A DNA stretch of 64,000 nt from Candidatus Obscuribacteraceae bacterium (GCA_044229845.1 JBGASG010000011.1:79480-143479); one strand, 5' to 3'. Shown: positions 325 through 62,561, counted from the first letter of the stretch. Translations and numbers: made by a program. The notes: generated by a model from the sequence alone, not told the origin.

Positions 325-342
325 GTCCATCCTGCGATGGAT
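325..342. promoter_or_regulatory. 7-4-7 palindromic box GTCCATC-CTGC-GATGGAT
   Basis: Member of the recurring box family. Minus-strand TATTTT (301-296) starts 32.5 bp from the box centre, ahead of the nnrS-like gene. Confidence 0.6.
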
Positions 343-366
343 CGACGTCTGCCGCAGGCGGTTTCG

Positions 367-384
367 CTCATCCTAAAGGATGAG
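367..384. promoter_or_regulatory. 7-4-7 palindromic box CTCATCC-TAAA-GGATGAG
   Basis: Perfect palindrome (extends to 9-bp arms) upstream of the nnrS-like gene. Confidence 0.7.
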
Positions 385-427
385 CGGATCTGACAGACAG
401 GCGAGCACCGCCCCACAACAGCGCGCC

Positions 428-1165
428 TTAGCGATTTCGTCTGACATCACACAGTGTATCTGTCATGGCTTGCCTCACGTGTTCGCGAAGCACGCGGAAG
501 TCTCCTCCATAACTTTCGGGATGAACAGGCGGCAAAACCTTTACGGTGATTTTCTGACGGAAGTTGATGCGTTTCGACTGTTTCGAAAAGATCTCATACG
601 TACCATCTACAACTATTGGTACGACTGCGACGTTGCAATCAACTGCAAGCTTGAACGGGCCATCACGAAAGCTACCCAGCTCACTGGTCTCAGATCGCGT
701 CCCTTCAGGAAAAATCAAGATAGAGGCGCCCCGTCGCAGCCACTGCCGGCAGGACTCCATCATCTGCTTGATACTTTTCAGGTCTCCGCGCGCTATTCGA
801 ACATATTGATTGAGCAACATGTTCCATCCGATAAACGGAATGCGCATCACCGATTCTTTCGAAACCCACTTGAAAGGTTTGAAAATACCGTAAAGAACAA
901 AGATATCCCAGAGAGATTGATGATTGGCGACCAGTATGTAAGGGCTCTTGCGCGTATCGATATTGTCCACGCCCTCGAAGGTGCACCGCCAAAAAGGATT
1001 GATCCAGATGTAGTGATGTCCCCACAAGCTGGCCCACATATGAAGGAGTTTGCGATTGCGATCAAACCAGCAAGTGAGCACGCAGATGATTGCTGCGCCC
1101 ACCACAAAGAATGCCGATGACAGGAAAAAGTAGACGGCATAGATATAACTGAGCAATTTGTCCAT
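428..1165 (-). CDS. 1-acyl-sn-glycerol-3-phosphate acyltransferase (LPLAT family)
   Basis: NHQSxxD and FPEGTRS motifs; N-terminal TM helix; start placed at ATG 1165. Confidence 0.88.
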   Translation of the reverse strand: MDKLLSYIYAVYFFLSSAFFVVGAAIICVLTCWFDRNRKLLHMWASLWGHHYIWINPFWRCTFEGVDNIDTRKSPYILVANHQSLWDIFVLYGIFKPFKWVSKESVMRIPFIGWNMLLNQYVRIARGDLKSIKQMMESCRQWLRRGASILIFPEGTRSETSELGSFRDGPFKLAVDCNVAVVPIVVDGTYEIFSKQSKRINFRQKITVKVLPPVHPESYGGDFRVLREHVRQAMTDTLCDVRRNR

Positions 1166-1338
1166 TGCGTAAGCCTTTTGTATGTATCGATCGGTTGCGA
1201 CGATTGGTTGGACGCAGCCCAACGAAAATGTAAGCACTTTTTGTTGCGCAGTTTCTAGTCACCTTTCGGTAACCATTTGTGCGCATGGGGAAAAGCAGGT
1301 TACTATGCTGGCGCAAACAGCGAGGGATAGGTAAAAGA

Positions 1339-2829
1339 ATGCAAGACAATTCGCAGCATCCTGTAGTTATCCAGGGCGGTATGGGAGTTGCAGTTTCAAA
1401 CTGGCGTCTGGCGAAGGCCGTTTCGGAATGCGGACAGCTGGGAGTGGTATCAGGAACGTTTTTAGACAATGTGATGGCGAGACGGTTGCAGGATGGCGAC
1501 CCAGATGGAGCGGTGCGTCGTGCTCTGGAGCACTTCCCGGTCCAAGCAGTGGCAAATAGGATTCTGGAACTCTATTTCATAGATGGTGGCAAGGCGGAGT
1601 CGACACAGTACAAACGTGTTCCGATGCATGGCATGAACGCGCCACAAAACCTGATCGATCTCACTGTGGCGGCCAATTTTGTAGAAGTGTTTCTGGCTAA
1701 AGAAGGACACGACGGACTGGTGGGCATTAACTATCTGACCAAGATCGACTTGCCCACTTTGCCCTCCCTTTACGGTGCCATGCTGGCGGGCGTGGATTAT
1801 GTCTTGATGGGAGCCGGCATACCGAAGGCGATTCCGGCAATTCTCGATCGGCTGAGTGTGCACGAGGCAGTTACTCTAAAGGTAGATGTCGAGGGTGCTG
1901 CCGCCGGTGACATGCACGAATTGTCTTTCGAGCCATCTGCCTACTGTGTGGATCGCTCTCGGCATTTGCGGCGCCCGACATTCCTGGCTATCGTTTCATC
2001 CTTTACGCTCGCCCTTTCGCTGACGAAAAAGGCCAGTGGCAAGGTAGATGGCTTTGTTATAGAACATCATTCAGCCGGCGGACACAATGCTCCACCTCGC
2101 GGCGGCATCACAGTCGACGAGCGCGGTGAGCCTGTTTATGGTCCTAAAGACGAAGTTGATCTGTCCGAATTCCGGAAGCTAGGTTTGCCGTTCTGGGCTG
2201 CCGGTTCATCCGCTTCTTATGAGCAACTGCAAGCGGCGCGAGAAGCCGGGGCACAGGGGGTGCAGGTAGGTACGGCATTTGCTTACTGTCGAGAATCAGG
2301 AATTACAGATAAGCTGAAAGCGCAGGTAATAGCCGACGTTCTTGAGGGCACTGCAGAAGTCTTCACAGACCCGCGTGCTTCATCGTCCGGCTATCCCTTC
2401 AAAATTGTTCAACTCGACGGCTCGTTGTCAGAGGACTCAGTGTACACAAACCGGCGCCGCATCTGCGATCTGGGATATCTGCGCACTGCCTACATAGCCG
2501 AGAACGGGACGGTCGGATTCCGTTGTCCCGGCGAACCCATCGACGATTTTTTGAGGAAGGGCGGACAGCTCAAAGACACCATCGGCAGAAAGTGCCTGTG
2601 CAATGGTTTGATGTCGACAGTCGGACTACCTCAGGTGCAAACGAATGCTTACGAGGAGCCTCCCCTGGTGACCGCCGGCGATACACTTGCTTCGATCAAG
2701 AGCTTCATACCCGCCGGTGCCACTACTTACTGCGCCCGCGATGTGCTGGAAAATCTCCTCGGTTCTTCAGAAGTCTCGGCACCGGTCCGAAGTGGACATC
2801 AGGCTGCTGTAAGCACCGCAGCCGGCTAA
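1339..2829 (+). CDS. Nitronate monooxygenase / FabK-FabX-like FMN enzyme
   Basis: IQGGMGVAVS, AGGHN and GVQVGTAF motifs; C-terminal Cys pattern (CDLG, CPGEP, CLC). Confidence 0.85.
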   Translation: MQDNSQHPVVIQGGMGVAVSNWRLAKAVSECGQLGVVSGTFLDNVMARRLQDGDPDGAVRRALEHFPVQAVANRILELYFIDGGKAESTQYKRVPMHGMNAPQNLIDLTVAANFVEVFLAKEGHDGLVGINYLTKIDLPTLPSLYGAMLAGVDYVLMGAGIPKAIPAILDRLSVHEAVTLKVDVEGAAAGDMHELSFEPSAYCVDRSRHLRRPTFLAIVSSFTLALSLTKKASGKVDGFVIEHHSAGGHNAPPRGGITVDERGEPVYGPKDEVDLSEFRKLGLPFWAAGSSASYEQLQAAREAGAQGVQVGTAFAYCRESGITDKLKAQVIADVLEGTAEVFTDPRASSSGYPFKIVQLDGSLSEDSVYTNRRRICDLGYLRTAYIAENGTVGFRCPGEPIDDFLRKGGQLKDTIGRKCLCNGLMSTVGLPQVQTNAYEEPPLVTAGDTLASIKSFIPAGATTYCARDVLENLLGSSEVSAPVRSGHQAAVSTAAG

Positions 2830-2864: not shown

Positions 2865-4334
2865 GTGGAGGCAAGGCGAGCTGAAAAACGCAAAAATGGA
2901 CATTACGCCGAAGAAGGCTTGATGTTTGTGAGCACCGTGTTGTTTCAGCAGATTACAATTGGGAAAAGTCCTGATGAGAGCGTGGACCGCTGGTCACCGC
3001 CTGTAGTTGTGGTTACAGCATTGCTGGTGGCCTTTGCCCTCTTCCTCTCGCTGGAAATCATTGAGCAGAGTTTGTTCGCTGAGCTCACGAGAAACCAGCT
3101 GCGAGCTTTTCACTTCCTGCGTGGATTTATAGCCACCGCCGGTGGCATGTTTTTCACATGGATGATAATGCGGAGAAAGGAAGCCCAGCTGGTTGCGCTG
3201 CGCAATAGTGTTGAACAGACGCTGTCGATCAGAACGGCGGAGCTGAATGAAGTCCTGCATTCGCAAGAGCAACAGCGCATGAAGCTGGATGCCATTCTGG
3301 CATCTATGGCAGAAGCGCTCATTGAAGTAAACAAAGAAGGACTGATCCAATCAGTCAACGACGAGTTCGAGCGCAAACTCGGAATTGAACGAAAGGATGT
3401 AATTGGTCGGACAGCGTCCGAGTTCTTTCTCCAATTCGCTGCGTCGCCAAGTGAGACATCTCTTGCGCAAGCATCGCTCGAATGGAACAAACCCCGCACG
3501 GGCACAGCGACCTATGAGCGTCACTACGGACAGCGTCTGGTATTTCACTGGGCGTGCTCTCCTATACGAATCAATGCGCAAACAGTGGGAGCAGTAGTCA
3601 CACTGGTCGATCTCACCGAGCGTTGCCGCCTGCAGGATGATTTGTCCTGCCAGAGAGAAGACTTTTTGGGCGTGATTAATCATCGGCTTCGTACACCCGT
3701 TTTGGCCAATATTCGTGCCAACGTATTGTTGCTGGAAGATGCCTTCGGAGCTCTCAGTGACCAACAACGCCAGCTTGTAGAGGCTATGCGCGATAACAGC
3801 GAAGATATCGATCGACTCCTGACCATGCTGGTAGATATCTATCGCTATAAGAATAATCACAAGCAGTTGCAGAAAGAAATACATTCGGCCAAGACTCTCA
3901 TAGAGAATTCGCTGCGCCGTATTCAAGCAAAGGTGCGGCAGCGGAACTTTACCCTTTCGGTAACTCTACCTGCGGATGACCTGCTAGTGGCAGTCGATGA
4001 GCAAGAGTTCCTGAAACTACTTGGACATTTAGCGGACAATGCAGCCAAACATGCTCGCTCCAAAATATCCATTTCGGCACACCTTGACGATGAGCAAGTG
4101 CACATCGTCGTTGAAGACGATGGGGCGGGCATATCTGCGGAGGATATTCCGAGGTTGTTTAACCGTTTCTATCAAGTCTCAGCCAGCGGCAGCCATTCAG
4201 CGGTGACAGGTACGGGCCTTTGTCTGTGTGCTGAGATTGCCCGCGCTCACAACGGCAGGCTCTCGTGCAGCAGCGAGCCGAACCTTGGCACCCGTTTTAC
4301 CGTGACGTTGAGAACAGCCGGCACAGGTGTCTGA
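2865..4334 (+). CDS. Membrane PAS sensor histidine kinase
   Basis: Two TM helices, PAS domain, H-box NHRLRTP, N box (DNAAKH), DDGAGI and GTGLCL boxes. Start uncertain (2865 or 2922). Confidence 0.85.
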   Translation: MEARRAEKRKNGHYAEEGLMFVSTVLFQQITIGKSPDESVDRWSPPVVVVTALLVAFALFLSLEIIEQSLFAELTRNQLRAFHFLRGFIATAGGMFFTWMIMRRKEAQLVALRNSVEQTLSIRTAELNEVLHSQEQQRMKLDAILASMAEALIEVNKEGLIQSVNDEFERKLGIERKDVIGRTASEFFLQFAASPSETSLAQASLEWNKPRTGTATYERHYGQRLVFHWACSPIRINAQTVGAVVTLVDLTERCRLQDDLSCQREDFLGVINHRLRTPVLANIRANVLLLEDAFGALSDQQRQLVEAMRDNSEDIDRLLTMLVDIYRYKNNHKQLQKEIHSAKTLIENSLRRIQAKVRQRNFTLSVTLPADDLLVAVDEQEFLKLLGHLADNAAKHARSKISISAHLDDEQVHIVVEDDGAGISAEDIPRLFNRFYQVSASGSHSAVTGTGLCLCAEIARAHNGRLSCSSEPNLGTRFTVTLRTAGTGV

Positions 4335-4335
4335 G

Positions 4336-4701: not shown

Positions 4702-4802
4702 ATACCACGACGGGGCGAACACCGAGATCAGTCTCCGGACTGATGCCGAAAGACTGCCGATTGGCTACTGTTCTAATGTGAAAGCTAAGAGCTACAAATG
4801 TA

Positions 4803-8259: not shown

Positions 8260-8277
8260 ATCATCTGAAAGGTGGAT
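8260..8277. promoter_or_regulatory. 7-4-7 box ATCATCT-GAAA-GGTGGAT
   Basis: Located in the tnaA/TPR divergent spacer. Confidence 0.65.
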
Positions 8278-10037: not shown

Positions 10038-10055
10038 ATCATCCTTTTGAATGAG
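10038..10055. promoter_or_regulatory. 7-4-7 box ATCATCC-TTTT-GAATGAG
   Basis: TAAAAT (10076-10081) starts 29.5 bp from the box centre, ahead of rubredoxin. Confidence 0.65.
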
Positions 10056-11068: not shown

Positions 11069-11086
11069 ATCCATCAGAGGGACGAG
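11069..11086. promoter_or_regulatory. 7-4-7 box ATCCATC-AGAG-GGACGAG
   Basis: Minus-strand TAGAGT (11047-11042) starts 30.5 bp from the box centre. Confidence 0.6.
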
Positions 11087-14130: not shown

Positions 14131-14148
14131 CTCAATCCAAAGGTGGAT
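14131..14148. promoter_or_regulatory. 7-4-7 box CTCAATC-CAAA-GGTGGAT
   Basis: Degenerate match upstream of narK2. Confidence 0.5.
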
Positions 14149-16175: not shown

Positions 16176-16193
16176 ATCATCCTTTCGGATGAT
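16176..16193. promoter_or_regulatory. Perfect 7-4-7 box ATCATCC-TTTC-GGATGAT
   Basis: Exact palindromic arms. Confidence 0.7.
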
Positions 16194-16227: not shown

Positions 16228-16848
16228 TCACTGCTCGGACGTGCCGCTGTGACTCTGGTCACCTTTGATCTTGCTCTTGCGATAACTCAAGCCCATGCCT
16301 TTCAAGAGATGCACGAAGCCGTAGTCAAGCAATACAATGGCAAGAAATGCCAGACCAACGTGCGGCGCATATTTTTGCAAGTTCTGAAGAAACAATGACC
16401 AGGGGTCGCCGTGATGCGGATTCAAAGCGTCAGTCCCCTGCGCAAACTCCTTGCCATCAGCAATACCGTCCTCGTCCAAATCACTTTGACCAAGTGCGTC
16501 CGCCAGCTTCGCCGGGTCGCTGCGCATTTCGAGAAACTTCTTCCGTCCAACTACTTTGAGTATCTCGTTGCCGAACTTATTGAGAATCGGGCTGTCAACC
16601 TCCGTGCCCGGCTCCATAGCCTTGCGGGCGGCAAGAAGCTTCTTCATCTGCTCAGGTGTTAGGCCGCCCACTTGTCCGGACTCTGTTCCCACCGGTCCAT
16701 TACCGTGGGTGTGGCACATTGCGCAATTAACATTGCGTCCGGACTGCTTCTCAGCATAGCTCTGGAATTCCGGATATGCCACCGCCCCCGGTGCCAGGCA
16801 GAACAGGCACGTGATCGTCAACAGTGTCAGAGACACATTCGTAGCCAC
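16228..16848 (-). CDS. Membrane-anchored monoheme cytochrome c
   Basis: Signal peptide AVA-YP, CAMCH, DLDEDGIADGKE Ca-binding-like motif, C-terminal TM helix. Confidence 0.8.
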   Translation of the reverse strand: MATNVSLTLLTITCLFCLAPGAVAYPEFQSYAEKQSGRNVNCAMCHTHGNGPVGTESGQVGGLTPEQMKKLLAARKAMEPGTEVDSPILNKFGNEILKVVGRKKFLEMRSDPAKLADALGQSDLDEDGIADGKEFAQGTDALNPHHGDPWSLFLQNLQKYAPHVGLAFLAIVLLDYGFVHLLKGMGLSYRKSKIKGDQSHSGTSEQ

Positions 16849-16852
16849 TTGA

Positions 16853-17953
16853 TTATCCCCCTTTCACAAGGTGATAGATCTGCTCGCCCCAAATGGTCAT
16901 TACAACCAAATAGACTGTCGCGGCCCAAGTCAATAATTGCAGCGTTCGCCGGCTGGTGCCCTTGAATATCCAGGGAGCCAGAAGCAGAACTGCCACCACC
17001 AGACCCGAGCCGACCAGAATTACCCAGAACGGCAGCATCTCCAGTGGGTAATAGACAAAATAGAAATACCATTCCGGCTTGATGCCGGGCGGGGTTGAGC
17101 CAAGCGCGTTGTACGGTTCCAGAAGCGGGAAGGGCAAAAGGGAATCGAATGGAATGCAGAGACCCAACACAAAGAGGACGAAGAAGATCATGCTCCACAG
17201 CGTAAGATCTTTGAAAAAGAAAATGGGGAAGAACCGCTCAGATTTCTGCAAAGGTCTATCCACTCCCTGACTCATCCCGTGCAGCTGCACTTGCATCAAA
17301 TGAATACCCAGCAAAGCAAACGTCGCCAGAGGCAATAGAACCACGTGCAATGCGTAAAACCTGCCCAGGGTGGATTGGCCGACGGCAGACTCGCCCTGAA
17401 ATGTTTCCCTCAGTATGCGAGGCAACTCGGCCAGTGCCCCAGGCAAATAGGGACCTACTTCTTCGACTGATTGAAGTCCGACCTTAGTGGCATTGACCGC
17501 AATCTGATTCCAGGGCAGTAGATATCCCGTGAAGGCAAAGCCGAATGTCAGAAATAGAAGCAACACACCCATGATCCATGTGATCTCGCGTGGCTTCTCG
17601 AAGGCTTTCATGGCAAATGCAGTGAGCAGGTGCACCACAGCAAAGAAGACCATGCATGATGCAGACCAGGCATGCATGTTGCGAATTAGTGCACCGGCAC
17701 TTACGTGATTTGTAATGAACTCTACAGACAAGTGCGCATCGCTTACCGTGGGCTGGTAATAGAAAAGAAGAAACAGTCCGGTGACGCATTGAATCAGGAA
17801 GAAGAACAGGGTCAGCCCCCCCGTGTAGTAGCCCCAACTCATTTTGTGAACCGGCACTTCCTTCTTCTCGACCATCGAGTGGAAATTCATTTTCTCCACA
17901 GGGAATCTGTCGCCGATGAATTGCACTAATTGCGTCATCACGGTGGCTTTCAC
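16853..17953 (-). CDS. Cytochrome b of a Rieske/cytb complex (b6 + subunit IV-like in one chain)
   Basis: H-x13-H and H-x14-H heme ligands; GYLLPW and PEWY motifs. GTGA overlap with narI and GGAGG SD. Confidence 0.92.
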   Translation of the reverse strand: MKATVMTQLVQFIGDRFPVEKMNFHSMVEKKEVPVHKMSWGYYTGGLTLFFFLIQCVTGLFLLFYYQPTVSDAHLSVEFITNHVSAGALIRNMHAWSASCMVFFAVVHLLTAFAMKAFEKPREITWIMGVLLLFLTFGFAFTGYLLPWNQIAVNATKVGLQSVEEVGPYLPGALAELPRILRETFQGESAVGQSTLGRFYALHVVLLPLATFALLGIHLMQVQLHGMSQGVDRPLQKSERFFPIFFFKDLTLWSMIFFVLFVLGLCIPFDSLLPFPLLEPYNALGSTPPGIKPEWYFYFVYYPLEMLPFWVILVGSGLVVAVLLLAPWIFKGTSRRTLQLLTWAATVYLVVMTIWGEQIYHLVKGG

Positions 17954-19269
17954 GAGACTGCCTCCGCATGCGCTTTTGCAATGTACACGTTGGCCTCGGA
18001 CAGAGCGCTTGCATCCCGTTGTCCGGTTATTTTGCCGGCGCGATTGCGTTCCATCAGCACCGTCCCTTTTGTATCCATGAGTACCCACCCCAACAAGGGC
18101 AGAGGTAGTTTTGCCGGCGCTCCTTCGTTTGGTTTGCCAGTTTCAATGTCGAAAAACGAAACGTGGCACGGGCAGAGAATCTGTCCCTTGGCATTAACAT
18201 CATTGCCTACGGTGCATCCCAAATGCGTGCACTTCGCGGAAAGCAAGATGGGCAAACCGTCTTTGTCCTTGAATGCCATTGCCGGTCGCATACTGTAATC
18301 GGTGAAATACTTTCCTTTTGTGCCGTTCAATTCCGACAACTTAGCAATCAGTATGTAATTGGATTGCTGCCGCTCCAGTTCTAGCTTGCGTTGCTCGGCG
18401 GTTGCCTGGAGCCTCTTCAATCGCAACTCCATCATCTCGGCTTCTTCCTCTTTGGAGAGGCGAGGGCCAAAGAAGAACCTCCAGGTCTTATCCAGGGCTC
18501 CCACTGCCAGCAACGCGCCACCGGCAGCGATACCGATGCCGGCGCGCAAAAAGTGTCGTCTGGACTCCTCCTCGACATAGTGCTCGCGAGCAGCCTCGGC
18601 TCGACGTTCATTCGTCCAGACCACCTTTTGCGGCGGACGGAACAGATACTCTATTGGCACAGCGAACATGTGTATGAGCCGGGAAAATGGAATCGTCAAA
18701 ATTATCAGCCAGGCTCCGACTATGTGAGCCCGAACCAGTATTGGCATGTCTTGTATTACGCTGATGTTGGGGTTGAAGGTGAACAGGCTCCAGATATATG
18801 GTGTCATGCTGCCGGGCGCCCAGGCGGCACCCCATCTGTAATGCAGCGCCATACCCAGCCCGGTAGCCACTTGCGCAAGCAAGAGAAACAGCACCACAAA
18901 GTCCATTGTGGTAGAAACGGCTTGCAGGCGCGAACTCATTATTCGTCGAACGATAAGCACCAGTAGCCCAACGATGCACCCGACTGCCAGCGCGATGCCG
19001 GATATCTCGACTGCGTGCAGGATGGGTTGCACGGACATAGCCGCCTTCCAGGGACCGGGTGCAACAAGCACCACGATATGGACGAGCAAAATCAGGATGA
19101 TGCCGATATGCCAGGGCACCGACCCCCACACCAGTGCTTTGCTCTCCAGAAACTGCGAGGACAAGGCGGTGTAAGTCAGACCTTGCTTGCGAATGCGGTA
19201 GATCGATCCAAATATGCAGGCCGTCAGCGCTATATAGGGCAGAACGACAAACAACAGGATGTCCAACAT
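17950..19269 (-). CDS. narI: NarI (gamma subunit) fused to a Tat-motif TM helix and Rieske 2Fe-2S domain
   Basis: SSQFLE, H-x9-H and H-x17-H (PFSRLIH), then SRRHFL + TM helix, CTHLGC and CPCH. Confidence 0.9.
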   Translation of the reverse strand: MLDILLFVVLPYIALTACIFGSIYRIRKQGLTYTALSSQFLESKALVWGSVPWHIGIILILLVHIVVLVAPGPWKAAMSVQPILHAVEISGIALAVGCIVGLLVLIVRRIMSSRLQAVSTTMDFVVLFLLLAQVATGLGMALHYRWGAAWAPGSMTPYIWSLFTFNPNISVIQDMPILVRAHIVGAWLIILTIPFSRLIHMFAVPIEYLFRPPQKVVWTNERRAEAAREHYVEEESRRHFLRAGIGIAAGGALLAVGALDKTWRFFFGPRLSKEEEAEMMELRLKRLQATAEQRKLELERQQSNYILIAKLSELNGTKGKYFTDYSMRPAMAFKDKDGLPILLSAKCTHLGCTVGNDVNAKGQILCPCHVSFFDIETGKPNEGAPAKLPLPLLGWVLMDTKGTVLMERNRAGKITGQRDASALSEANVYIAKAHAEAVS

Positions 19270-19279
19270 AACAAACTCC

Positions 19280-19813
19280 TCAGCTACCGGCACTCATAAC
19301 TTCCAAAAGACTGGCAAAGAGCTTGCCATACGGGTTGTTGGTTGCATTTTTCAGATTGTCTGCCATTTCGGCCACTGGTTTTTGCAGACAGAACTCAACC
19401 AGCTCGTCGACTTCTTCAGTCGTGGCATATGTCATGTATCGCAACATCACAGCCAGATGGTCCGGCATTTCATTGCCGCGGTCGAAGCCGGTTTCATCGT
19501 ATCTTTGGATCAGCCCGGCCATTAAGTTGCCGCGCTCGTAGTTTTCATCACCATAAATGTGTGCGCTTATGTATGGGCTGCAAATTGGTGCCATATCGAA
19601 GGTGCGGGTGAATACCTCTTCGAGCTCGCTGAGAGGCATTGCATCGATGCGCTCGCAGAACTCAGCCAGATAGCGCCCCGCTCTGGAATAGTCCGCACTT
19701 ATGGAAACTTGCCTCTGGCGGGCCAGTTGCGAGTAACCTTCATTCGGATACTCGAGCAAGGCTGCGTATTCAGAAAGGGCCGGCGCTTTAGGTTTTTTCA
19801 ACGGAATGATCAT
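19280..19813 (-). CDS. narJ: Nitrate reductase molybdenum cofactor assembly chaperone
   Basis: LLEYP, FTRTFD and EMPDHL motifs; lies between narH and narI. Confidence 0.88.
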   Translation of the reverse strand: MIIPLKKPKAPALSEYAALLEYPNEGYSQLARQRQVSISADYSRAGRYLAEFCERIDAMPLSELEEVFTRTFDMAPICSPYISAHIYGDENYERGNLMAGLIQRYDETGFDRGNEMPDHLAVMLRYMTYATTEEVDELVEFCLQKPVAEMADNLKNATNNPYGKLFASLLEVMSAGS

Positions 19814-19814
19814 A

Positions 19815-21338
19815 TTATGGACCTCTCTCCGGTGGCTGGTTGAATCCAAGCCCGCATGAGCCTTTACATAACTCGGGACTGCACGAAGGTTGCCCGGCCA
19901 TCGCTTGACCGGTCATCGCTTCTTCTCGCTGAATTGGCGCCAGTACAAAGCGATCGTAAATCGTTGGTAGAGCAGTAAGCGAATAAATCTCCTCAGCTTC
20001 TGAAGGAGTGACATTACCTTCGCGCATGAACTTGCTCATGGATACGAGATCAAGATCTCCTATCTCCTGCGTCCGTTTGTAATAACGCACCGCCATCAGT
20101 TTCTTCATTACGTATTCGATGTGCTCTACATTGCCGGCGCTAAAGAGTTTCGCCAGGTATTTGATCGGCAATCGCGACTTTTCCAGGCTGCTGAAAAACT
20201 GATCGACCGGATTCTCGTAATGCCCGTTGTCGAATTTACCCATCACAGGCAAAAGTGGTGGCACATAGAAAAGCATCGGCATGGTCCGATACTCTACGTG
20301 TAAAGGCAGTGCAAGTTTCCATTCCTTGACGTACTTATATATAGGCGACTTTTGAGCGGCATCGATAAATTCGTCGCTGATCCCGTTTTTGCGAGCCTCC
20401 TGCATGATCTTGGGATCGAAGGGGTCGCAGATGACACTGCGCTGCGCCTCGACGAGGGCATGATCCGGTACGCTCATGGCTTCAGCCACACGCTCCGCGT
20501 CATACAGCAGAACCCCCAGATAACGGATGCGGCCCACACATGACTGGAAGCAGTTGGGAATCTGTCCTGTCTCCAGCTTTGGATAGCAAAGAATGCACTT
20601 CTCCGATTTGCCCGTTTTCCAGTTGTAATAAATTTTCTTATACGGGCAAGCGGAGATGCACGCTCTCCAGCCCTTGCACATGTCCTGATTGATCAGGACA
20701 ATTCCGTCTTCGCCGCGCTTATAAAGAGCCCCAGACGGGCAGGATGCGACACAGCTGGGATTTGCGCAATGATTGCAAATGCGGGGCAAATACATAAATG
20801 AGATACGCTCTACCTCGAAGAGTTGCTCGCGCTCTTCGTCACTGAGACCTTCGAGATTGATATCGTTTTCGGCGTAGACAGGGGAGCCAGAAAGATCATC
20901 ATCCCAGTTCGGACCAGCTTCGATGTCCATTGGCTCACCGGTGATTTGCGACACGGCAATTGCTGTGGGCTGATCATCACCTTCTGGTGCATCGAACAAG
21001 TCCTGGTATTTGTACGTCCAGGGCTCATAATAATCCTCGAGCCCCGGTTGGTTCGGGTTGTAGAACAGTTTGAGAAACGCATCCAGCTTGCCTTGTGAGC
21101 GCAGCTCAAGGCTTCGCTTGCCGTTCTTGCCGTTGACTTTCCAGCCGCCTTTGTAGTGCTCCTGATCTTCCCACAAAGTGGGATAGCCGGTGCCGGGTTT
21201 GGTTTCGACATTGTTCCACCACATATACTCAGCGCCCGGTCTATCCGTCCAGACGTTTTTGCAAGCCACGCTGCACGTATGGCAGCCGATACATTTGTCG
21301 AGGTGAAACACCATTGAGACTTGTGCGCGAATATCCAT
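19815..21338 (-). CDS. narH: Nitrate reductase / nitrite oxidoreductase beta subunit
   Basis: LDKCIGCHTCSVACK, PRICNHC.NPSCVASCP, CKGWRACISACPY and KCILCYP motifs. Confidence 0.95.
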   Translation of the reverse strand: MDIRAQVSMVFHLDKCIGCHTCSVACKNVWTDRPGAEYMWWNNVETKPGTGYPTLWEDQEHYKGGWKVNGKNGKRSLELRSQGKLDAFLKLFYNPNQPGLEDYYEPWTYKYQDLFDAPEGDDQPTAIAVSQITGEPMDIEAGPNWDDDLSGSPVYAENDINLEGLSDEEREQLFEVERISFMYLPRICNHCANPSCVASCPSGALYKRGEDGIVLINQDMCKGWRACISACPYKKIYYNWKTGKSEKCILCYPKLETGQIPNCFQSCVGRIRYLGVLLYDAERVAEAMSVPDHALVEAQRSVICDPFDPKIMQEARKNGISDEFIDAAQKSPIYKYVKEWKLALPLHVEYRTMPMLFYVPPLLPVMGKFDNGHYENPVDQFFSSLEKSRLPIKYLAKLFSAGNVEHIEYVMKKLMAVRYYKRTQEIGDLDLVSMSKFMREGNVTPSEAEEIYSLTALPTIYDRFVLAPIQREEAMTGQAMAGQPSCSPELCKGSCGLGFNQPPERGP

Positions 21339-21346
21339 ATCGACTC

Positions 21347-24300
21347 CTAGAAGTTCGGCTTGTCGAGTTTTTTCACAACGACGAAAGTGTCACGATTTAC
21401 GCCAGTAGGTCCCCAGTAGTTGAACCCATAGCTGAATTGCGCATAGCCGCCGATCATGAATAGCGGCTTCAGTCGTGCCCGCGTAAGACTGTTGTGTCCG
21501 CCGGCTCGCCTGTTTTTTCGTTCCGGAGATTTCGGTACTGTCAACGTGCGCTCGGGCGAGTGATAAATGAAAGCGGTGCCGCGCGGGATACGAGCACTGA
21601 CGATAGCGCGGGTGCAGACCACGCCATGATCGTTGAAAATTTCTACCCAGTCGTTATCTTCGACACCAACGAGATCGGCATCCTTGTCGTTCAACCAGAC
21701 CGGATAAATTCCTCTGCTCAGAGTTTTCATCCGTAAGGTGTCGCCGAAGGTTGAGTGAATATGCCACTTGCCGTGTGGTGTCAGGTAATTGAGCACCAAC
21801 GAGCCACCTTTCACCTCAGTTTTCTGCAGGTCACGCGTGACACTCAAGTCGGCACGTGGTTTGTATGTCGGCAGATGCTCGCCGTAAGCGATGTAGACTT
21901 CATGATCCAGATACAGATGCTGCCGGCCGGTAAGCGTGCGCCAGGGAATCAATTCTTCGACGTTCTGGCAATAAGCGGAGTAGGTTCTGTTTTCAGTCGT
22001 TATGCCAGTCCAGTAGGGTGATGTCAGCACACGACGCGGCTGCGCCCTCAAATCAGCGAATGTATAGCGGGTAGCGCGCGTGTCTCTGGCCAGATGGCTA
22101 TGATCGATACCTGTCTTATGACTTTCAGATTCATATGCGCGAAAAGCAAGTTCGCCGTTTGTCTCCGCTGCGAAGTTCAAAATCACCTCGCAAACATTGA
22201 GACCTTCCTTTAGTGACGGATAGCTTTTGCCTGACCATGTTTGCGACGGTTGAGTCTCGATGTATTTGTCATACTCATCTTCGATATCATAGTGAGTTCC
22301 GTGTACCGCCAATCCATTGTTGCGGGCGACCGGCCCGAATGAGATGAACTTGTTATAGAGATTGACGTAATCGCGCTCCACTACTTTCATATTGGGCATG
22401 GTCTTGCCCGGAATTGCTTCGCATTCACCCTTGAGCCAGTCTTTCACAGTCGGTTGCGCGATCTCGCCGGGAGTGTCATGAAGCAAAGGCGACACCACCA
22501 GGTCTTTGACCGGTTCGTTCAAATAGCGTTTTGCCAACTCAGAGGTAGATTTCGCAATTCCTTTGAATATATCCCAATCAGTCTTGCTTTCCCAACATGG
22601 TGGCACCGCCGGTTGCAGAGGATGAATAAAGGAATGCATGTCCGTGGTGTTCAGGTCATGCTTTTCATAGTGGGTAGCTGCAGGCAAGACCAGGTCTGAA
22701 TAGAGAGCAGATGAATCCATGCGGAAGTTAAGGTCTACCACCAGATCCATCTTGCCCAACTCGATCTTGTCGTGCCAGGTAATCTCTTTGACCTCATCAC
22801 CGGCCACTTCCTCGGCTATGGTGTTATTGTGCGTTCCCAAGTAATGTTTGAGAAAATACTCGTGTCCCTTTGCTGATGAGAGCAGCGCATTTCCCCGCCA
22901 TATGTACCAGACGCGGGGCCACGACTCCGGCACGTCAGGATCTTCCATGGAGAATTTCAATGAGCGATCTTTTAAAGACTTAACTGCATACTCAATGATT
23001 TGCGAGTCGGTTTTTGCTCCACTGGCTACTGCTTCTTCGACCACTTTGAGATTGCTTCGGTTGAATTGTGGAAAGCACGGCAGCCAGCCATTTCGTACAG
23101 CCAACACTTGTTTGTCAGCTGTATGTCCTGAACTCATTGGATGCTTGTCGTCCGCTACCGCGCACATCTCATTAAATGAATTGTCATAGCGCCACTGATC
23201 CGAATGTATGTAATGGAAAGACGGCGTATTTTGCAGACGCGGCGGCCCGTACCAATCTGTGCCGAAAGCAATGGGTGCCCACGAGGCCTGTGGCACCAGC
23301 TTTTCTTGTCCAACGTAGTGGTTTAAGCCGCCACCACTTACCCCGACACTGCCGGTGAGGATGAGCGCATTGATTGCCGCTCTGTAAATGAGGTTGTTGT
23401 GATACCAGTGGTTGGCACCGGCACCAATAATTATCGAGCACTTGCCTTTACTCGCTTCTGCGGTGCGCCCCCACTCGCGAGCGAAGTTGATCACATTTAC
23501 TGCTTTGATGCCAGTAAACTTCTCCTGCCACGCGGGGGTATAAGGAAGCTCTTCGTCTTCGTAAGTCTCCGGATATGCGCCTCCCATGCCGCGGTCAACA
23601 CCATATTGAGCAAGCAGAAGCTCCATGACGGTCGTCACAAGCACTTCCCCGGTGGCGGTTGTGACGCGGCGAACTGCCACACCACGATTGAAAAGTTTGT
23701 CGGCAGTGCCTTCCGAGAAGTCGTTTAACTTCACACTCACCACGCCATCATGACGCCCGACGAGGGTGAGGAGTGGATCTACCTTGGCGTTGGTCAAAGC
23801 ATTCTCCAACTTCAGATTCCATTCGCCTTTTTTGGATTGCCAGCGATGCCCAATCGTTCCTCTGAGCATTGCCGGCTGATCGGTGAGCGCGTCCCAAACG
23901 AACATTTTCCACTCGGCGTTCTCTTCCTTCGCTGTGCTTTCGACATCACTGGCCCTCAGCAAACGCCCGGCGCTGTATGTGCCATCGGCATTTTTGTCGA
24001 GACAGACAAGAAACGGAGCATCGCTGTATTGCTTGGCATAATTGACGAAGTAAGGCACCTGCCGATCGAGGTAAAACTCTTTAAGCAGAACATGCGTAAC
24101 TGCCATCCAGAAAGCGCCGTCCTGTCCCTGATTGATTGGAACCCACTCGTCAGCAATTTTCGAAGCCATCGAGAAGTCTGGCGAGAAGACCACAACCTTG
24201 GCGCCACGGTGCCGTCCTTCAACTAAGAAGTGCGCGTCGGGTGTTCTTGTCATGAGCACGTTGGAGCCTACAACGGCAACAAATTTGGAGTGAAACCAAT

Positions 24301-38136: not shown

Positions 38137-38145
38137 GGCAGCTCC

Positions 38146-39318: not shown

Positions 39319-39476
39319 CGTCGATCCGTTGTCTCCAAACGCCTGCATCTCCAGCACAGGCATATGCAGACTAGCTTTCGGCGTCCTGGCTTTTCATCGG
39401 CCTTGCGGCTTTGCGCAAAGATGTGTCACACACGCAAATAGCCAAAAGAGCGCGTCTTTTTCGCGCTAGCGCAAAG

Positions 39477-39494
39477 ATCCTCCGAAAGGATGAT
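39477..39494. promoter_or_regulatory. 7-4-7 box ATCCTCC-GAAA-GGATGAT
   Basis: One mismatch from the perfect box; lies in the bc-bd/hcp divergent spacer. Confidence 0.7.
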
Positions 39495-39596
39495 TCCAGT
39501 CGCCAGAGCTGCTCAAATCAGCCGTTGGGACAATGTCGCCATCTGCTAAAACCAGCTAATCTGGACGATCTATTGAAGTTTGACGAGGGATTCATA

Positions 39597-46779: not shown

Positions 46780-46810
46780 AAAAAATAGGCGGCAGTTCTA
46801 ACTGCCGCCT
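46780..46810 (-). terminator. Intrinsic terminator
   Basis: AGGCGGCAGT-N4-ACTGCCGCCT followed by a U-tract on the minus strand. Confidence 0.8.
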
Positions 46811-46925
46811 TCAGGCTCTGAGTTTCCTCTGGTGCCTGCTGCCCTTGGAGGTTTATCTCGACTGTTCTTCGAGTACTTGGTGCTCGATTGAATTGTCTTG
46901 AATGCCCCCCTTGGGTTTCTCTTGT
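46780..46925 (-). ncRNA. Candidate ~145-nt small RNA
   Basis: Box at 46959-46976, -10 TAGTAT at 46937-46932, a terminator, and no ATG/GTG/TTG start inside. Confidence 0.45.
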
Positions 46926-46946
46926 GCTTATATACTAACTCTCGTT

Positions 46947-47678
46947 CTACTCTTGCGCATCATTCTTTAGGCTGATCTCCTCCGACCTCGCTGGTGACTG
47001 CAACTGCTGCAAATGCTTGACGAACCAAGCAGCGGCCATCTCTCCCACAAATTCCAGTCCCTCGGAATCCGCCAGGATATCTGACATCCGATCAAATGTC
47101 CGCAAACCTTTCTCACAGGACAGAGAAGCTAGTACCTTTTCACTGGTTTCGCAGTTCGAATCATTTTGGCTTAGCAATAACAGGGTAGGAGCCTTGATGA
47201 ACGGCCACGTGGCCTCCGTCTCCTCTAAGCACCCGCTCCGCGCGACTACCGCCTTAACCACATCAGGCAGCCGTGCAGCCGCAACAAACGCAGCCGCCGC
47301 GCCCTTATCGTCTCCGAAAAGTCCCAGTGGTAGAGAACGCAAGTGGCGTTGCTCTTCCAGCCAGATGATTGCGCTCACCAGACGATCGCCCAGCATCACC
47401 GTGTCGCGGCGCAAGTCCCCTGTTTTCTCATCGTAGTCAGCCTCTTCGTCGGTCAATAAATCAAAAAGCAAAGTGCCGACTTTGTATTTGTTGAGCACAC
47501 TCGCCAGGTGAACATTGTCTTTTCCGCAAACTCCACTACCGTGAGCAAAGATGACGAGACACTTTGCACCTTGCGGGATAGAAAGCATTCCGCTCACTGT
47601 AACATTCCATGCCAGTTTGACGAGGACGGGCTCACCCGGTCCCAGAGTGGTTGGCTGCGGTAGTACTCTGCGCTCCAT
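46947..47678 (-). CDS. Dienelactone-hydrolase-like alpha/beta hydrolase (degenerate nucleophile)
   Basis: LVIFAHGSG, TLLFDLLT.EE and APTLLL motifs; GLFGDDKG in place of G.FGASTG. Confidence 0.75.
   Translation of the reverse strand: MERRVLPQPTTLGPGEPVLVKLAWNVTVSGMLSIPQGAKCLVIFAHGSGVCGKDNVHLASVLNKYKVGTLLFDLLTDEEADYDEKTGDLRRDTVMLGDRLVSAIIWLEEQRHLRSLPLGLFGDDKGAAAAFVAAARLPDVVKAVVARSGCLEETEATWPFIKAPTLLLLSQNDSNCETSEKVLASLSCEKGLRTFDRMSDILADSEGLEFVGEMAAAWFVKHLQQLQSPARSEEISLKNDAQE
46959..46976. promoter_or_regulatory. 7-4-7 box ATCATTC-TTTA-GGCTGAT inside a CDS 3' end
   Basis: Box centre lies 30.5 bp from TAGTAT. Confidence 0.6.
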
Positions 47679-47754: not shown

Positions 47755-47799
47755 ATCGTACACATGGTTGACACGCGGTGCATGACCCTTTAGGACGAT
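47755..47799. promoter_or_regulatory. Tandem 7-4-7 boxes ATCGTAC-ACAT-GGTTGAC and ATGACCC-TTTA-GGACGAT
   Basis: Sites at 47755-72 and 47782-99; TACTTT (47731-26) starts 32.5 bp from the proximal centre. Confidence 0.6.
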
Positions 47800-48438: not shown

Positions 48439-48495
48439 CGTACATACCCGAATTTCTTGCTGCATTATTCTACGCGTCTGAGGAACGCGGACGAA

Positions 48496-49446
48496 TCAGT
48501 CCAAAGACTGATTCTCAGGCGAATGTTGATGGGCGGCGCGGCTGACATCGTCTTTCGATGGCTTGCCCAACTTGAGGGAGAGCAAAATTGAATCCGCCCT
48601 GACACCGTATTTTTTGCGCACACCTTTTTCAAAGATTTGCCACGCGCGTACAGTGTCTTTGACAGCCAAGTCTTTGGCTAGCTGGTGATAGGTGAGCCGA
48701 TACCGCGTTGAGACAACACTGCCTTCCAGAGTTCTGGCGTTGTCTTTGTTGAGCTCTAGATAACAAAGCGAAACCCGAGCAACGGCATAGCTCAAAACAG
48801 TAGATTCCGGACAGTTGAACAGAGACCGCGTGCCAAACTCCTGTTCGGAATGAAACACGAGCGCCGGGTGCCGTCGAGACAATGACTGCACGACCTGCGG
48901 ACGCGTTTCAAGCGCTTCTTGCTGCAATAGTCCTTCGTAGTAATAGTAACAAGTACTCAGTCTTTCCGGTGGGTTAGACCAGTCAACTATCTCCAACGGT
49001 TTATCTTCAGACAATAACAGCTCCAGATAATTCGAGTGCGAATAAAAATCCTGCACAGCATGAAAGGTACGCCCCAAAGCCTGAAGCGTCTGTTTACAGG
49101 CCCCGCCTTTGCGATCGCATTCGTCGGCATCCCCAATAGCTTGCGAGAGATTTGATTGAATGAAGGAGAAAGTAGATTTAGCTTGATTATTCAAAGCATG
49201 ACATTCAGGACGCATAAAGTTCGGAGAACCAGGCTGGTCTTGTGCGTCTGATCCATTGCCAATTTGCTCTAAAGCCGGTGGTGCAAATCCAAATTGCCTT
49301 AACGCGTTCCCGTTTATTTCTCTGTGTACTCGCCCCCCGAGTAAACGAAACGTCGAGAAAGCCTCAGCAGGGCGCAAGAATGCATGCAGAGAGAACCACA
49401 GCACCAGAGAGCCAGTCAGAACGGAAACTATTGTTCGTTGTAGCAC
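48496..49446 (-). CDS. Secreted HET-C / zinc phospholipase C-like protein
   Basis: Signal peptide (AEA-F), H.EI and LGRTFHAVQDFYSHSNY motif. Confidence 0.7.
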   Translation of the reverse strand: MLQRTIVSVLTGSLVLWFSLHAFLRPAEAFSTFRLLGGRVHREINGNALRQFGFAPPALEQIGNGSDAQDQPGSPNFMRPECHALNNQAKSTFSFIQSNLSQAIGDADECDRKGGACKQTLQALGRTFHAVQDFYSHSNYLELLLSEDKPLEIVDWSNPPERLSTCYYYYEGLLQQEALETRPQVVQSLSRRHPALVFHSEQEFGTRSLFNCPESTVLSYAVARVSLCYLELNKDNARTLEGSVVSTRYRLTYHQLAKDLAVKDTVRAWQIFEKGVRKKYGVRADSILLSLKLGKPSKDDVSRAAHQHSPENQSLD

Positions 49447-60437: not shown

Positions 60438-60519
60438 CTACTCCTATCGAACGGATAACGATTGCATTTGATCATCCCTCGGCGCACAAAAATGCGCATT
60501 GTCTGTAAGATTGAGTTGC

Positions 60520-60537
60520 CTCCTTCTGAAGGATGAA
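60520..60537. promoter_or_regulatory. 7-4-7 box CTCCTTC-TGAA-GGATGAA
   Basis: Upstream of the avidin-like gene. Confidence 0.5.
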
Positions 60538-60538
60538 T

Positions 60539-62437
60539 TTAAACGTGCTGGCACGCATTACGACCTGGCTGCAGCATCGATAGCAAATCATCTGTTGTTA
60601 GCGTCTCTGCGACCAAAAGGCGCTCGGCGACTTGATAGAGGTGATCTTTGTGCTCTAGCAAGATCGCGCCGGCGCGATCAGCGGCGTCCTCAATTAGTCC
60701 TTTTACGGCCCGGTCGATCTCATGGGCAGTGGACTCGCTGAACCGTTGGCGCTCCCACGGCATCGCCGCAACGCCTCCGTTACCTGACTGCAGAGGCTCG
60801 CCTTCATAGGCTACCGGACCAAGTTTTTCACTCATGCCATACCGCATAACCATAGCGCGAGCGATCTCAGTGGCTTTAGCGAGGTCGTCCGCCGCTCCAG
60901 TGCTGGTATCACCGAACACAGCTAATTCCGCAGCCCGCCCAGCTAGAAGTCCGGCCAACTTATTGTGCAGTTCACCGGCGGACACCAGAAAACGATCTTC
61001 AGTCGGTCTTTGCAAGGTATATCCGAGAGCACCGAGCCCGCGGGGGATAATCGAGACCTTCTGGAGGCGCTCCACGCCCGGCAACAAAACCGACAATAAC
61101 GCGTGACCAGACTCGTGGAATGCGACACGTTTGCGTTCCAACGCGTTGAGCAATCGATTTTTCTTCTCCAACCCCGCCACGATCCGTTCAAGGGCAGCCA
61201 AAAAATCAGCTGCGTAAACTTGCTCAACTTCGCGTCGAGCTGCGAGCAAAACCGCTTCGTTGACCAAGTTGGCCAAATCAGCGCCGGTAAAGCCTGGTGT
61301 CATAGTGGCTACTTCTTCAACGTCGACATCCGGAGCGCAAATAACGTTTTGCAAATGCACGTTCAATATGTCCACGCGTCCGGTTTTATCTGGTCGGTCC
61401 ACCAGCACGTGCCGATCAAAGCGCCCCGCGCGCAAAAGTGCCGGGTCGAGAATTTCCGGGCGATTGGTGGCGCCTAAGAGCACTACGCCTCGAGTGACAT
61501 CAAATCCGTCAATTTCCACCAGCAATTGATTGAGAGTTTGCTCTTTTTCATCGTGACCACCGGTAGCCGGGCTCAAGGCTCTCGCTTTGCCCAGCGCGTC
61601 CAATTCATCGATAAAGATGATACAGGGAGCGGCTTTCCTCGCCTCCGAGAAAAGATCACGCACCCGGGCTGCTCCAACTCCTACATAAAGTTCAACGAAT
61701 TCTGAGCCGCTTATAGAAAAAAACGGCACGCTTGCTTCCCCCGCCACTGCTCTAGCCAGCAAGGTTTTACCCGTGCCAGGCGGACCAACCAGGAGAATTC
61801 CTTTCGGCAACCGGCCACCAAGCTTGCTGTAGCGATCGGGCTTCTTGAGAAACTGGACGATTTCCTTTAATTCATCCTTCGCTTCGTCCACTCCAGCCAC
61901 ATCCGCAAAGGTAATCTCGATTCTTTCTTCTTTGAACACGCGTGCGCCGCTGCGCTCCATGGAGGAAAGCACACCGCCCGCTCCGCCGCGAGCCGCCGAT
62001 TTGCCGACGCTCAGCAGCGCAAAGAGCAGGAGGACGGGGAGCGCCGTCGAAAATATCATAGAAAGCCAATCATGCTCTTCTTTTCCTTCAAACTTAACTG
62101 GCAACTTCGCCAGTTCATCAGCTATTTGCGGATCGACTCGGACAGTTTCGAACGTGCGGCCCTTATTTTTGCCGTTTGTGATATCTCCTTCTATGCGTCG
62201 AGTGGTGACCTTGAGATTGGACACAGCACCCGCTCTAGCTCTTTCGAGAAATTCACTATATGTCAGACTCACTCTCGGCAGCGGCAACATAAGCGGAATC
62301 GCCATTGCAAACAACCAGAAGACCAGGATGATCACCAATGCGATGATTTCATTGGAGGACCAATTTTTTTCCTTCTTGCCGTCCGTCTCGGCTGAGGTTG
62401 GCTCGTGCTTGTTCGGCTTCGCTTTGGGCTTGCTCAT
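60539..62437 (-). CDS. ftsH: ATP-dependent zinc metalloprotease FtsH
   Basis: Two TM helices; [26 protein letters not shown] and HESGH motifs. Confidence 0.95.
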
Positions 62438-62493
62438 ATCTGGACCGTTCTCTACTAACTGCCGCCAGTCTAGTAATTTACCGACAGTCCGAC

Positions 62494-62561
62494 ATCAGTC
62501 TGCGGCATGTCATCCGTGCGGACGAGCCATAACAGTGGCAGCTTTCAGCAGCTAGATGGAG
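62494..62561. promoter_or_regulatory. Cluster of 7-4-7 boxes (best GTCATCC-GTGC-GGACGAG at 62509-26)
   Basis: Weaker sites at 62494-511 (30.5 bp from minus-strand TAGACT) and 62544-61, in the ftsH/USP spacer. Confidence 0.6.

Follow-up and report, generated by a model that had tools for sequence, protein, structure and literature searches.

The question raised by this locus is whether a palindrome that recurs between its genes is a real regulatory site and, if so, which protein reads it and in answer to which signal. The locus is a stretch of 64,000 nucleotides from Candidatus Obscuribacteraceae bacterium (GCA_044229845.1 JBGASG010000011.1:79480-143479; G000:C20:79480-143479 in our own numbering), called the window here, and it forms the final 64 kb of a 143-kb contig (C20) in a genome of 5.16 Mb that is 88% complete. 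A preliminary description, made from the sequence of the window, had taken the palindrome ATCATCC-N4-GGATGAT as the box of an island-wide regulon activated by one NarL/LuxR-type regulator. We find that the palindrome is a real regulatory site, with binding, start sites and induction predicted from it, and from the computed box, its enrichment, spacing and conservation, the target set, the gene pairing, the key residues and an RNA family, we infer a low-oxygen regulon, to which we give a probability of roughly 0.64. In this regulon a response regulator (RR-A) and a globin-coupled histidine kinase (GcHK), both encoded on the same contig, would form the switch acting on the box promoters by way of an oxygen signal, deoxy-on polarity, phosphotransfer, binding and activation.

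The refined consensus of the box reads (A)TCATCCT-WW-AGGATGA(T), and the 22 sites first listed for it fared unequally when scored with a matrix built from 124 distinct sites, all from other genomes. Twelve are supported (367, 8260, 10038, 14131, 16176, 27456, 35011, 39477, 46959, 47782, 60520 and 62509), with 13.9 to 26.9 bits and at most 0.43 chance matches per 64 kb; seven are weak or uncertain (325, 2853, 4684, 11069, 47755, 49528 and 62544), with 4.6 to 7.9 bits and 6 to 22 chance matches per 64 kb; and three (1257, 52553 and 62494) have negative scores and are non-matches. Counted as mismatches to the 14 specified bases, ten of the 22 sites have 0 to 3, three have 4, five have 5 and four have 7 or 8 (325, 1257, 2853 and 52553). 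Four additional boxes, at 4727, 35048, 39517 and 48495, had been overlooked, and the weak site at 47755 overlaps the -10 element of the 47782 promoter. Around 169 strong sites, secondary sites cluster 20 to 28 and 33 to 35 bp away, and because of this concentration at fixed distances weak sites beside strong ones may still be used.

The coding background, which had been left uncounted, does not remove the enrichment between genes. With coding and intergenic labels from our own hexamer gene caller, and at most three mismatches, the window holds nine sites in 12.5 kb of intergenic DNA (72 per 100 kb) and five in 51.5 kb of coding DNA (9.7 per 100 kb), while the remainder of the genome holds 30 in 733 kb and 198 in 4287 kb, respectively (4.1 to 4.6 per 100 kb). 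Against the nine intergenic sites of the box in the window, 60 permuted half-sites gave a mean of 0.55 and a maximum of 3. The held-out part of the contig (C20:1-79479) carries 13 sites with at most three mismatches in 14.2 kb of intergenic DNA, four of them with 0 or 1 mismatch vs. none in the other 5.02 Mb, and a matrix made from 11 window sites reaches at least 14 bits at 10 intergenic held-out sites vs. 5 in 733 kb elsewhere.

It is here that chance palindromes or dispersed repeats with no regulatory role have to be weighed. The list of 22 contains ten weak or non-matching sites, and a repeat elsewhere in the genome scores borderline with the matrix; the held-out enrichment, in contrast, refutes chance for the 12 strong sites, and arm-only conservation, fixed -10 spacing and coherent targets argue the same way, so that we consider chance hardly credible at all. 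The repeat in question is a dispersed 15-copy palindrome with an ATCAACA-N4-TGTTGAT core in longer inverted repeats, unrelated to the box, found on contigs C1, C6, C8, C12, C13, C19 and C22 of this genome (G000).

The box is not the property of an island. It occurs in 20 of 24 sampled genomes of the family Obscuribacteraceae, so that the regulon first described as island-wide is lineage-wide and clustered on this contig. The strict pattern has 82 matches in the 24 family genomes vs. 5 for a reversed control, kin genomes not being independent of each other, and 12 vs. 14 in 16 genomes outside the family, which is control level. In relatives, conservation is confined to the arms of the box and the flanks are not conserved. 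A genome of the same genus (G001) keeps the boxes at 46959, 47782, 48495, 60520 and 62509 within intergenic DNA of about 85% identity, the 18 bases of the last being identical, and it retains both box and -10 at the 48495 promoter. Another genome (G022) has the same bc-bd oxidase operon preceded by a 25.9-bit box, amid housekeeping genes. Three strong boxes also lie off contig C20, at G000:C9:24521-27232, one of them identical in G001, beside genes that by eye are rhodanese/ArsR-like, tetratricopeptide repeat (TPR) and transporter-like. In G001 a narK-ric-nnrS block is duplicated (G001:C39:278500-283600 and 345000-350000), with boxes at corresponding positions.

The spacing between box and promoter is the second line of evidence. 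A TAxxxT hexamer had been said to begin 29.5 to 32.5 bp from the box centre in nine cases; six of these stand on supported boxes, that of 11069 is borderline, and those of 325 and 62494 are unsupported. Among the contig sites of at least 12 bits, TAnnnT starts at +30.5 or +31.5 in 11 of 31 vs. a background of 3.5% (p 4e-9), with 0 to 3 at other offsets. In 86 one-directional promoters of relatives it starts at +30.5 in 19 and at +31.5 in 7, with about 1 per position elsewhere, while the opposite side of the box gives 9 and 1; the -10 matches in relatives are distributed over 24 of 91 target clusters.

A small RNA provides a second measure of the same distance. The box at 46959..46976 (23.8 bits) lies inside the 3' end of the open reading frame (ORF) 46947-47678, and with its -10 element TAGTAT (46932-46937) it precedes an ORF-free stretch on the minus strand that encodes a structured, conserved RNA (46780..46926) with its terminator end at 46780. 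The architecture is 5' AGAGAAACCC, a variable hairpin, a GGGCAGCAGGCA...GAGCCTGAAG core and an intrinsic terminator. BLAST found the RNA in 31 of 103 family genomes, and a covariance model made from 20 copies found it in 53 of the 103, 49 of them above 40 bits, with two or three copies in some genomes; the model found none in three sister-family genomes and reached at best 35 bits outside the order. Model matches beyond the family, none above 35 bits, are probably terminators and were set aside, one of them having been inspected. Because its flanking genes vary in identity and direction, the RNA is a stand-alone unit. Double-sided changes occur at 16 of 19 pairs, many in the terminator, in an alignment that was itself fitted to the model. 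In Rfam the RNA stays below the gathering threshold everywhere, and only its terminator hairpin touches CsrC (15.7 vs. 61 bits).

In the first 21 copies, which were recovered with a query containing the promoter, the box lies 45 to 48 nt before an AGA motif in 14, and there or at 68 to 71 nt in 19. In 41 further copies above 40 bits, one of which repeats a training copy, the box centre is 41 to 45 nt upstream of the conserved 5' end in 15; 18 have a box at 41 to 45 or 62 to 72 nt, and in 4 a box of any kind is present within 150 nt downstream. Many copies lack a box, and therefore the RNA is not exclusively a member of the regulon. As for its role, a trans-acting, protein-binding RNA has about an even chance of being right, and it is favored because the bases of the invariant core sit in pairs or internal loops and do not form an exposed seed. 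FnrS of enterics and DrrS of M. tuberculosis are likewise anaerobic small RNAs under low-oxygen master regulators, whereas the present RNA has no Rfam match, is found only in Obscuribacteraceae among the genomes searched, and has some boxless copies. The preliminary description had proposed a second small RNA behind the perfect box at 16176..16193 (26.9 bits; -10 TATCGT at 16148-16153, minus strand), and this candidate has no homologue in 77 family genomes; 3' of its -10 there is a strong hairpin at about 16045-16095 and then ORF 14198-15946.

A site centred near -42 is, by the class II rule known from CRP and FNR, an activator position. The class II geometry earlier proposed for the box is borne out by the -10 peak at 30.5 to 31.5 bp from the centre and by the conserved RNA 5' end, and by this proxy the predicted start would lie about 41 to 43 nt from the centre, as in class II activator placement. 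A repressor, or dual action depending on the promoter, could be argued from the 20 of 31 contig sites without a strict TAnnnT at +30.5/31.5, and at some divergent promoters the box could block one direction; the centre near -42, the sharp -10 peak and the fixed distance to the RNA 5' end are, in contrast, those of an activator, and we regard repression as very improbable.

Which protein, then, reads the box? The preliminary description had reported no response regulator in the window, and both a regulator and a sensor are found outside it, on the same contig. RR-A (G000:C20:14580-15308), 65 kb upstream of the window, has a receiver and a GerE helix-turn-helix of NarL/FixJ (LuxR) type (PF00072 and PF00196, both above cut-off), stays below every named equivalog cut-off shown, and is one of nine GerE matches in the genome, two of which are on C20. 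Its orthologues occur in 18 of the 24 family genomes, head-to-head with a protoglobin-PAS-HisKA-HATPase gene, and this head-to-head arrangement with GcHK holds in 70 of 71 informative related loci. Around the pair there are 134 intergenic boxes in 219 kb vs. a mean of 1.1 and a maximum of 4 for 30 permuted matrices. Within 10 kb, RR-A and GcHK alone approach universal presence (71 and 69 of 75 loci), universal stress proteins (USPs) coming next with 49, and no other recognizable DNA-binding protein is comparably conserved within that distance. Also near the pair are a 144-amino acid protein without a Pfam match (L094:2712-3143), in 25 of the 75 loci, and a resolvase-N-only protein (L101:7903-8418), in 24.

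The recognition helix of RR-A, SL[AP]T[AT]KTHVRNILNKL, hardly varies, and among regulators of solved structure LiaR and VraR are the closest to RR-A. The structure of LiaR on DNA shows Lys177 reading the guanines of T-X4-C-X4-G-X4-A, with Thr178 in contact with the second base (PMC4482077). Lys214 and Thr215 of RR-A align with these two residues, the same skeleton is present in 27 of the 31 contig sites, and conservation in the logo is highest at its bases. In lactococci, CesR has the box TCAGHCTnnAGDCTGA (PMC4447274), which differs from the consensus found here at one position per arm. It is quite probable that RR-A binds the box and is the one NarL/LuxR-type regulator that had been postulated.

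Another protein could be the binder, with RR-A and GcHK merely co-clustered: an Rrf2 or HxlR protein of the window, a second response regulator (RR-B, C20:56418-57053), a Crp/Fnr protein, Rex or an unlinked factor. In its favor, G001 and G022 have boxes in genomes where the pair was not detected, and boxes stand before the RR-B kinase gene (19.3 bits) and before the Rrf2 gene, which is also preceded by strict boxes in G011, G018 and G024. RR-B, Rrf2, Rex and Crp/Fnr were, however, rejected as binders. RR-B is found in one of 41 genomes, and Rrf2 was not found in G017 (98% complete), G010 and G009, which hold five, four and five strict boxes, respectively. Rex (PF06971) was not found in this 88%-complete assembly, and the sole Crp/Fnr protein over cut-off, on another contig, has no N-terminal Cys cluster. 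The box also differs from the FNR (TTGAT-N4-ATCAA) and NsrR (gATGyAT-N5-ATrCATc) sites. Two apparent exceptions to the pairing, G064 and G065, were dropped as such, given that the kinase core is present in both, on small fragmentary contigs of 2.1 and 1.6 kb. G070 (93% complete) has neither pair nor strict boxes, and G007 has no pair and counts near control, yet it retains one 25-bit site. We therefore hold a different binder to be quite unlikely.

Several observations nevertheless weigh against parts of this picture. For the box and its spacing, dyad enumeration, an unbiased search, ranks the box motif first in both halves of the contig with p values of 1e-4.6 and 1e-5.9 that are uncorrected for about 21,000 tests and alone are not significant after multiple testing, and the strict -10 is missing from the 20 contig sites mentioned above. 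Other points concern RR-A and GcHK as the switch. Almost every genome of the order has the pair, so its co-occurrence with the box discriminates little, and a presence/absence test of kinase against box is weak for that reason and because the looser pattern has a background of about 4 per genome. G001 (89% complete), whose box cluster runs to a contig end, and G022 (87%) have clear boxes in incomplete assemblies where the pair was not found. Conversely, a family (f2) that has the pair, with the helix SLSTVKSH, has no box of at least 14 bits in 32 kb, and the genera g21, g19 and g3 have the kinase with genome-wide counts of the looser pattern near control, boxes nonetheless being present near their regulator. 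In the genome studied here RR-A and GcHK are 15 kb apart rather than adjacent, another regulator (C8:594735) also carries Lys-Thr, a weak box (10.6 bits) stands in front of RR-A, and the spacer between regulator and kinase in relatives has none. Close NarL-family relatives, moreover, need not share consensus sites (PMC4482077), and a direct path would require the reverse of the O2-on behavior of the known globin kinases.

That last point concerns the sensor. GcHK (C20:30548-32284) is a cytoplasmic protoglobin-PAS-HisKA-HATPase protein (PF11563, E 6e-41). The 76 loci related to it are mostly labelled Obscuribacterales or Melainabacteria, and several of the few with other labels coincide with loci of same-family genomes; the best 120 homologues listed share its architecture, those with names being mostly Obscuribacterales. 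Its globin domain is present in 72 of 80 genomes of the order that are at least 85% complete and was absent from all 13 genomes sampled in other orders. Tyr53 is kept in 66 of 67 orthologues and His106 in at least 95%, and they align with Tyr45 (O2 recognition) and His99 (haem ligand) of AfGcHK (PMC8697598). His316, Asp317 and Thr320 of the H-box HDLKT are invariant, and because an acidic residue is thus kept after the His, GcHK is predicted to be a bifunctional kinase/phosphatase by the H-box rule of PMC3510030. The C-terminus of GcHK carries a tandem seven-residue repeat, ESAEGAG (L002:12167-12284 = G000:C20:32167-32284), and a homologue (P0006) has a USP domain fused in its place.

The closest paralogues of GcHK are encoded in the window, by a PAS-HisKA-HATPase gene on the plus strand (2865..4334; H-box HRLRTP, His at 3681), and at C20:13288-14577, the latter divergent from RR-A, where relatives place the globin kinase. 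Both have H-R-L-x-T H-boxes, and since Arg replaces the acidic residue after the His, both should be without kinase activity; the one at 2865-4334 is probably a phosphatase only, rather than an input.

AfGcHK shows activity in the Fe(II)-O2, Fe(II)-CO and Fe(III) states and none as deoxy Fe(II) (PMC8697598), and NmpU is proposed to be O2-on, acting via a second kinase and an NtrC regulator (PMC11841059). The simplest wiring here would in contrast require a deoxy-on kinase, because of the activator geometry, the anaerobic targets and the lack of a conserved second kinase, and this is the least certain step. The same box and regulator could instead be wired indirectly or inversely, with GcHK O2-on and acting via phosphatase control, a further kinase or an unphosphorylated activator, or its haem could sense nitric oxide (NO), carbon monoxide or redox state. 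Such wiring would accord with the O2-on behavior of AfGcHK (PMC8697598) and with the way the Myxococcus NmpU silences a second kinase (PMC11841059), as well as with the two H-R-L-x-T paralogues, one of them divergent from RR-A, and with hcp, a ric-type (ScdA/hemerythrin) gene and nnrS among the targets. However, no second kinase is conserved near the pair, an HRLxTP paralogue being present in 1 of 75 loci, and most targets (hydrogenase, nrdD, phosphoenolpyruvate (PEP) synthase, USPs) indicate anoxia rather than NO. We suggest keeping these alternatives in mind as unlikely ones.

In the low-oxygen regulon that we favor, the loss of O2 from the GcHK haem would shift the balance toward kinase activity, GcHK would phosphorylate RR-A, and the phosphorylated dimer would bind the palindrome centred near -42, often together with a second site two to three helical turns off, and would recruit a sigma70-type polymerase. 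Nitrate respiration, the bc-bd oxidase, NiFe hydrogenase, fermentation enzymes and anaerobic ribonucleotide reductase would be switched on, and with them USPs, Hsp20 and FtsH, NO-stress genes and the structured small RNA. The fuller proposal, in which the regulon extends over the order Obscuribacterales and a deoxy-on protoglobin-PAS kinase directly phosphorylates a LiaR-like NarL regulator, with class II promoters and the new RNA, as an independently assembled equivalent of DosR, is tentative and falls somewhat short of an even chance.

The genes preceded by boxes in relatives, surveyed in loci within 10 kb of the kinase and named from best matches in this genome and by eye, are most commonly USPs, P-type ATPases, hydrogenase and maturation genes, PEP synthase and acetyl-CoA hydrolase, and further FtsH, Hsp20, rhodanese, cytochromes c, desaturase, hcp and norB. 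These targets overlap the DosR, Anr and lxa gene sets (PMC10034137, PMC12071387), and the functional analogy to DosR/FNR drawn in the preliminary description gains from this overlap together with the regulator class and the geometry.

The window itself contains narGHJI, two NarK-like transporters, NO reductase, the bc/bd-like oxidase operon and a split hcp, besides a tryptophanase/tyrosine phenol-lyase pair, Hsp20s, USPs, FtsH and a BCAM0308-family gene; the 79 kb of the contig 5' of it contain NiFe hydrogenase and maturation genes, PEP synthase, acetyl-CoA hydrolase, nrdD, hemA, the ric-type gene, nnrS and additional USPs, with a phosphoketolase and a P-type ATPase named by eye. The box at 367..384 (20.4 bits) is upstream of a minus-strand ORF starting at 169, a putative nnrS by its earlier name. 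That at 4727..4744 (12.1 bits) separates divergent CMD and HxlR genes and has a -10 on either side (4699-4704 and 4766-4771), and that at 8260..8277 (14.7 bits) lies between the minus-strand lyase pair, with a likely GTG start near 8207, and a TPR gene. Divergent genes for Rrf2 (9505-9948) and rubredoxin (10120-10353) flank the box at 10038..10055 (21.8 bits; -10 TAAAAT, 10076-10081). A weak, probable box at 11069..11086 (7.9 bits), with TAGAGT (11042-11047) at exactly +30.5, precedes ORF 10385-11026, which had been called a USP and has no Pfam or NCBIfam match, and the box at 14131..14148 (14.2 bits) is upstream of minus-strand genes for a NarK-like transporter of the major facilitator superfamily (MFS) and a radical SAM protein.

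Nitrate respiration is encoded on the minus strand by the target operon 16228..27387 (protoporphyrinogen oxidase, cytochrome c, narG, narH, narJ, narI-Rieske fusion, cytochrome b and a membrane protein), and the box at 27456..27473 (20.2 bits) stands between it (-10 TATCTT, 27429-27434) and a divergent NarK-like MFS gene at 27597. Within this operon, 17950-19293 encodes the NarI-Rieske domain fusion, the cytochrome b adjoining. A second Rrf2 gene (29244-29687, minus strand) is divergent from the NO reductase gene, and because there is no box there, norB is probably under its own NO-responsive control. The box pair 35011..35065 (35011 and 35048; 18.9 and 14.0 bits; -10 TACATT, 34983-34988) is upstream of two Hsp20 genes. 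The next target operon, 35108..39363 (minus strand), encodes a membrane protein, Rieske, cytochrome b and, within this bc operon, a fusion of a bd-oxidase-subunit-I-like protein with cytochrome c; a second pair, 39477..39534 (39477 and 39517; 23.0 and 16.3 bits; -10 TAATCT, 39557-39562), lies between it and hcp.

In the last part of the window, the box at 47782..47799 (16.6 bits; -10 TACGAT, 47755-47760) is upstream of ORF 46947-47678, which had been called a hydrolase and has no family match, and that at 48495..48512 (21.1 bits; -10 TAGAAT, 48467-48472) is upstream of a bifunctional-nuclease-domain gene. The box at 60520..60537 (14.0 bits) precedes an avidin-family gene (60003-60437, minus strand), box-preceded in locus L124 too, which lies 5' of a BCAM0308 (lxa-family) gene, and the box at 62509..62526 (13.9 bits) lies between divergent ftsH and USP genes.

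Mobile DNA has also entered this region. An IS66 element and, on the opposite strand, a reverse transcriptase gene of a group II intron split hcp (39597-46065), and two group II introns, at 32188-33896 and 42977-44786, have reverse transcriptase-maturase ORFs and Rfam D1-D4 matches. Contig C20 has a GC content of 53.2% vs. about 55.5% for the genome, and two of its three 40-kb tetranucleotide windows are outliers (ranks 3 and 6 of 119), which makes lateral additions likely; an island or a mis-binned contig was rejected, given that the regulator-bearing part of C20 is compositionally typical and the regulon is family-wide. Parts of 14000-22000 are contained in 20 RNA libraries from sludge or wastewater, and contigs from four libraries match parts of 9400-29300, mostly at 99% identity or more; they were not used as evidence because they reveal neither start, strand nor level. 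These contigs have intron-like loose ends at 21748 and 25947-25948, whose counterpart was not found in this assembly and which are perhaps strain-level insertions.

Obscuribacterales are a sister lineage of cyanobacteria that does not photosynthesize. The lineage has received little study and is central to the question of how cyanobacteria and their kin adapted to oxygen. Our search of the open-access literature turned up no description of this motif, pair or RNA in Obscuribacterales. The proposed regulon, if true, provides a testable circuit of sensor, regulator, site, promoter geometry and targets for this lineage. It would also mean that a globin-coupled kinase has a polarity opposite to that of the two characterized ones, which would inform how haem state is coupled to kinase output, that one more family of regulators has taken over the hypoxia gene set of USP, Hsp20, nar and hydrogenase, and that an oxygen response relies on a recognition code of LiaR type. 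To this is added a conserved RNA family that is new, and many unknown genes would be assigned a low-oxygen role.

Among known systems, DosS/DosT-DosR of mycobacteria also joins haem sensor kinases to a NarL-family regulator with USP and heat-shock targets (PMC10034137, PMC12071387). In contrast to its GAF sensors, the one here is protoglobin-PAS-HisKA and belongs to a different phylum, and RR-A has the LiaR-like Lys-Thr where DosR has Lys182-Asn183. The DosR box, of GGGAC type, is unlike the present one. AfGcHK of Anaeromyxobacter and NmpU of Myxococcus are protoglobin His kinases with the same proximal His and distal Tyr (PMC8697598, PMC11841059), and the Nmp regulon also contains low-oxygen genes, including USP, P-type ATPase and a high-affinity oxidase (PMC11841059). 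NmpRSTU, however, has an O2-on kinase, a second hybrid kinase, an NtrC/sigma54 regulator and a GCGCA-N5-TGCGC site (PMC11841059), whereas here a PAS domain is inserted, the sole conserved partner is NarL-type and the class II spacing is of sigma70 type. LiaR, VraR and CesR, the nearest solved regulators, share the T-X4-C-X4-G-X4-A skeleton, a near-identical 16-bp consensus and secondary sites two to three turns off, but RR-A has Ala at the Lys174 position of LiaR, its partner is a cytoplasmic globin HisKA kinase instead of the membrane LiaS/LiaF, and its targets are of anaerobic and stress type rather than of the envelope. The lxa locus of Burkholderia cenocepacia clusters low-oxygen genes with several USPs (PMC12071387), and a BCAM0308-family gene is under the box here. 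FNR, Anr and FixK have class II geometry in common with the present regulon but use CRP/FNR-family proteins on TTGAT-N4-ATCAA-like sites. The regulon would thus work like that of DosR with parts like those of AfGcHK and LiaR, while appearing to depart from each of them in a defining feature.

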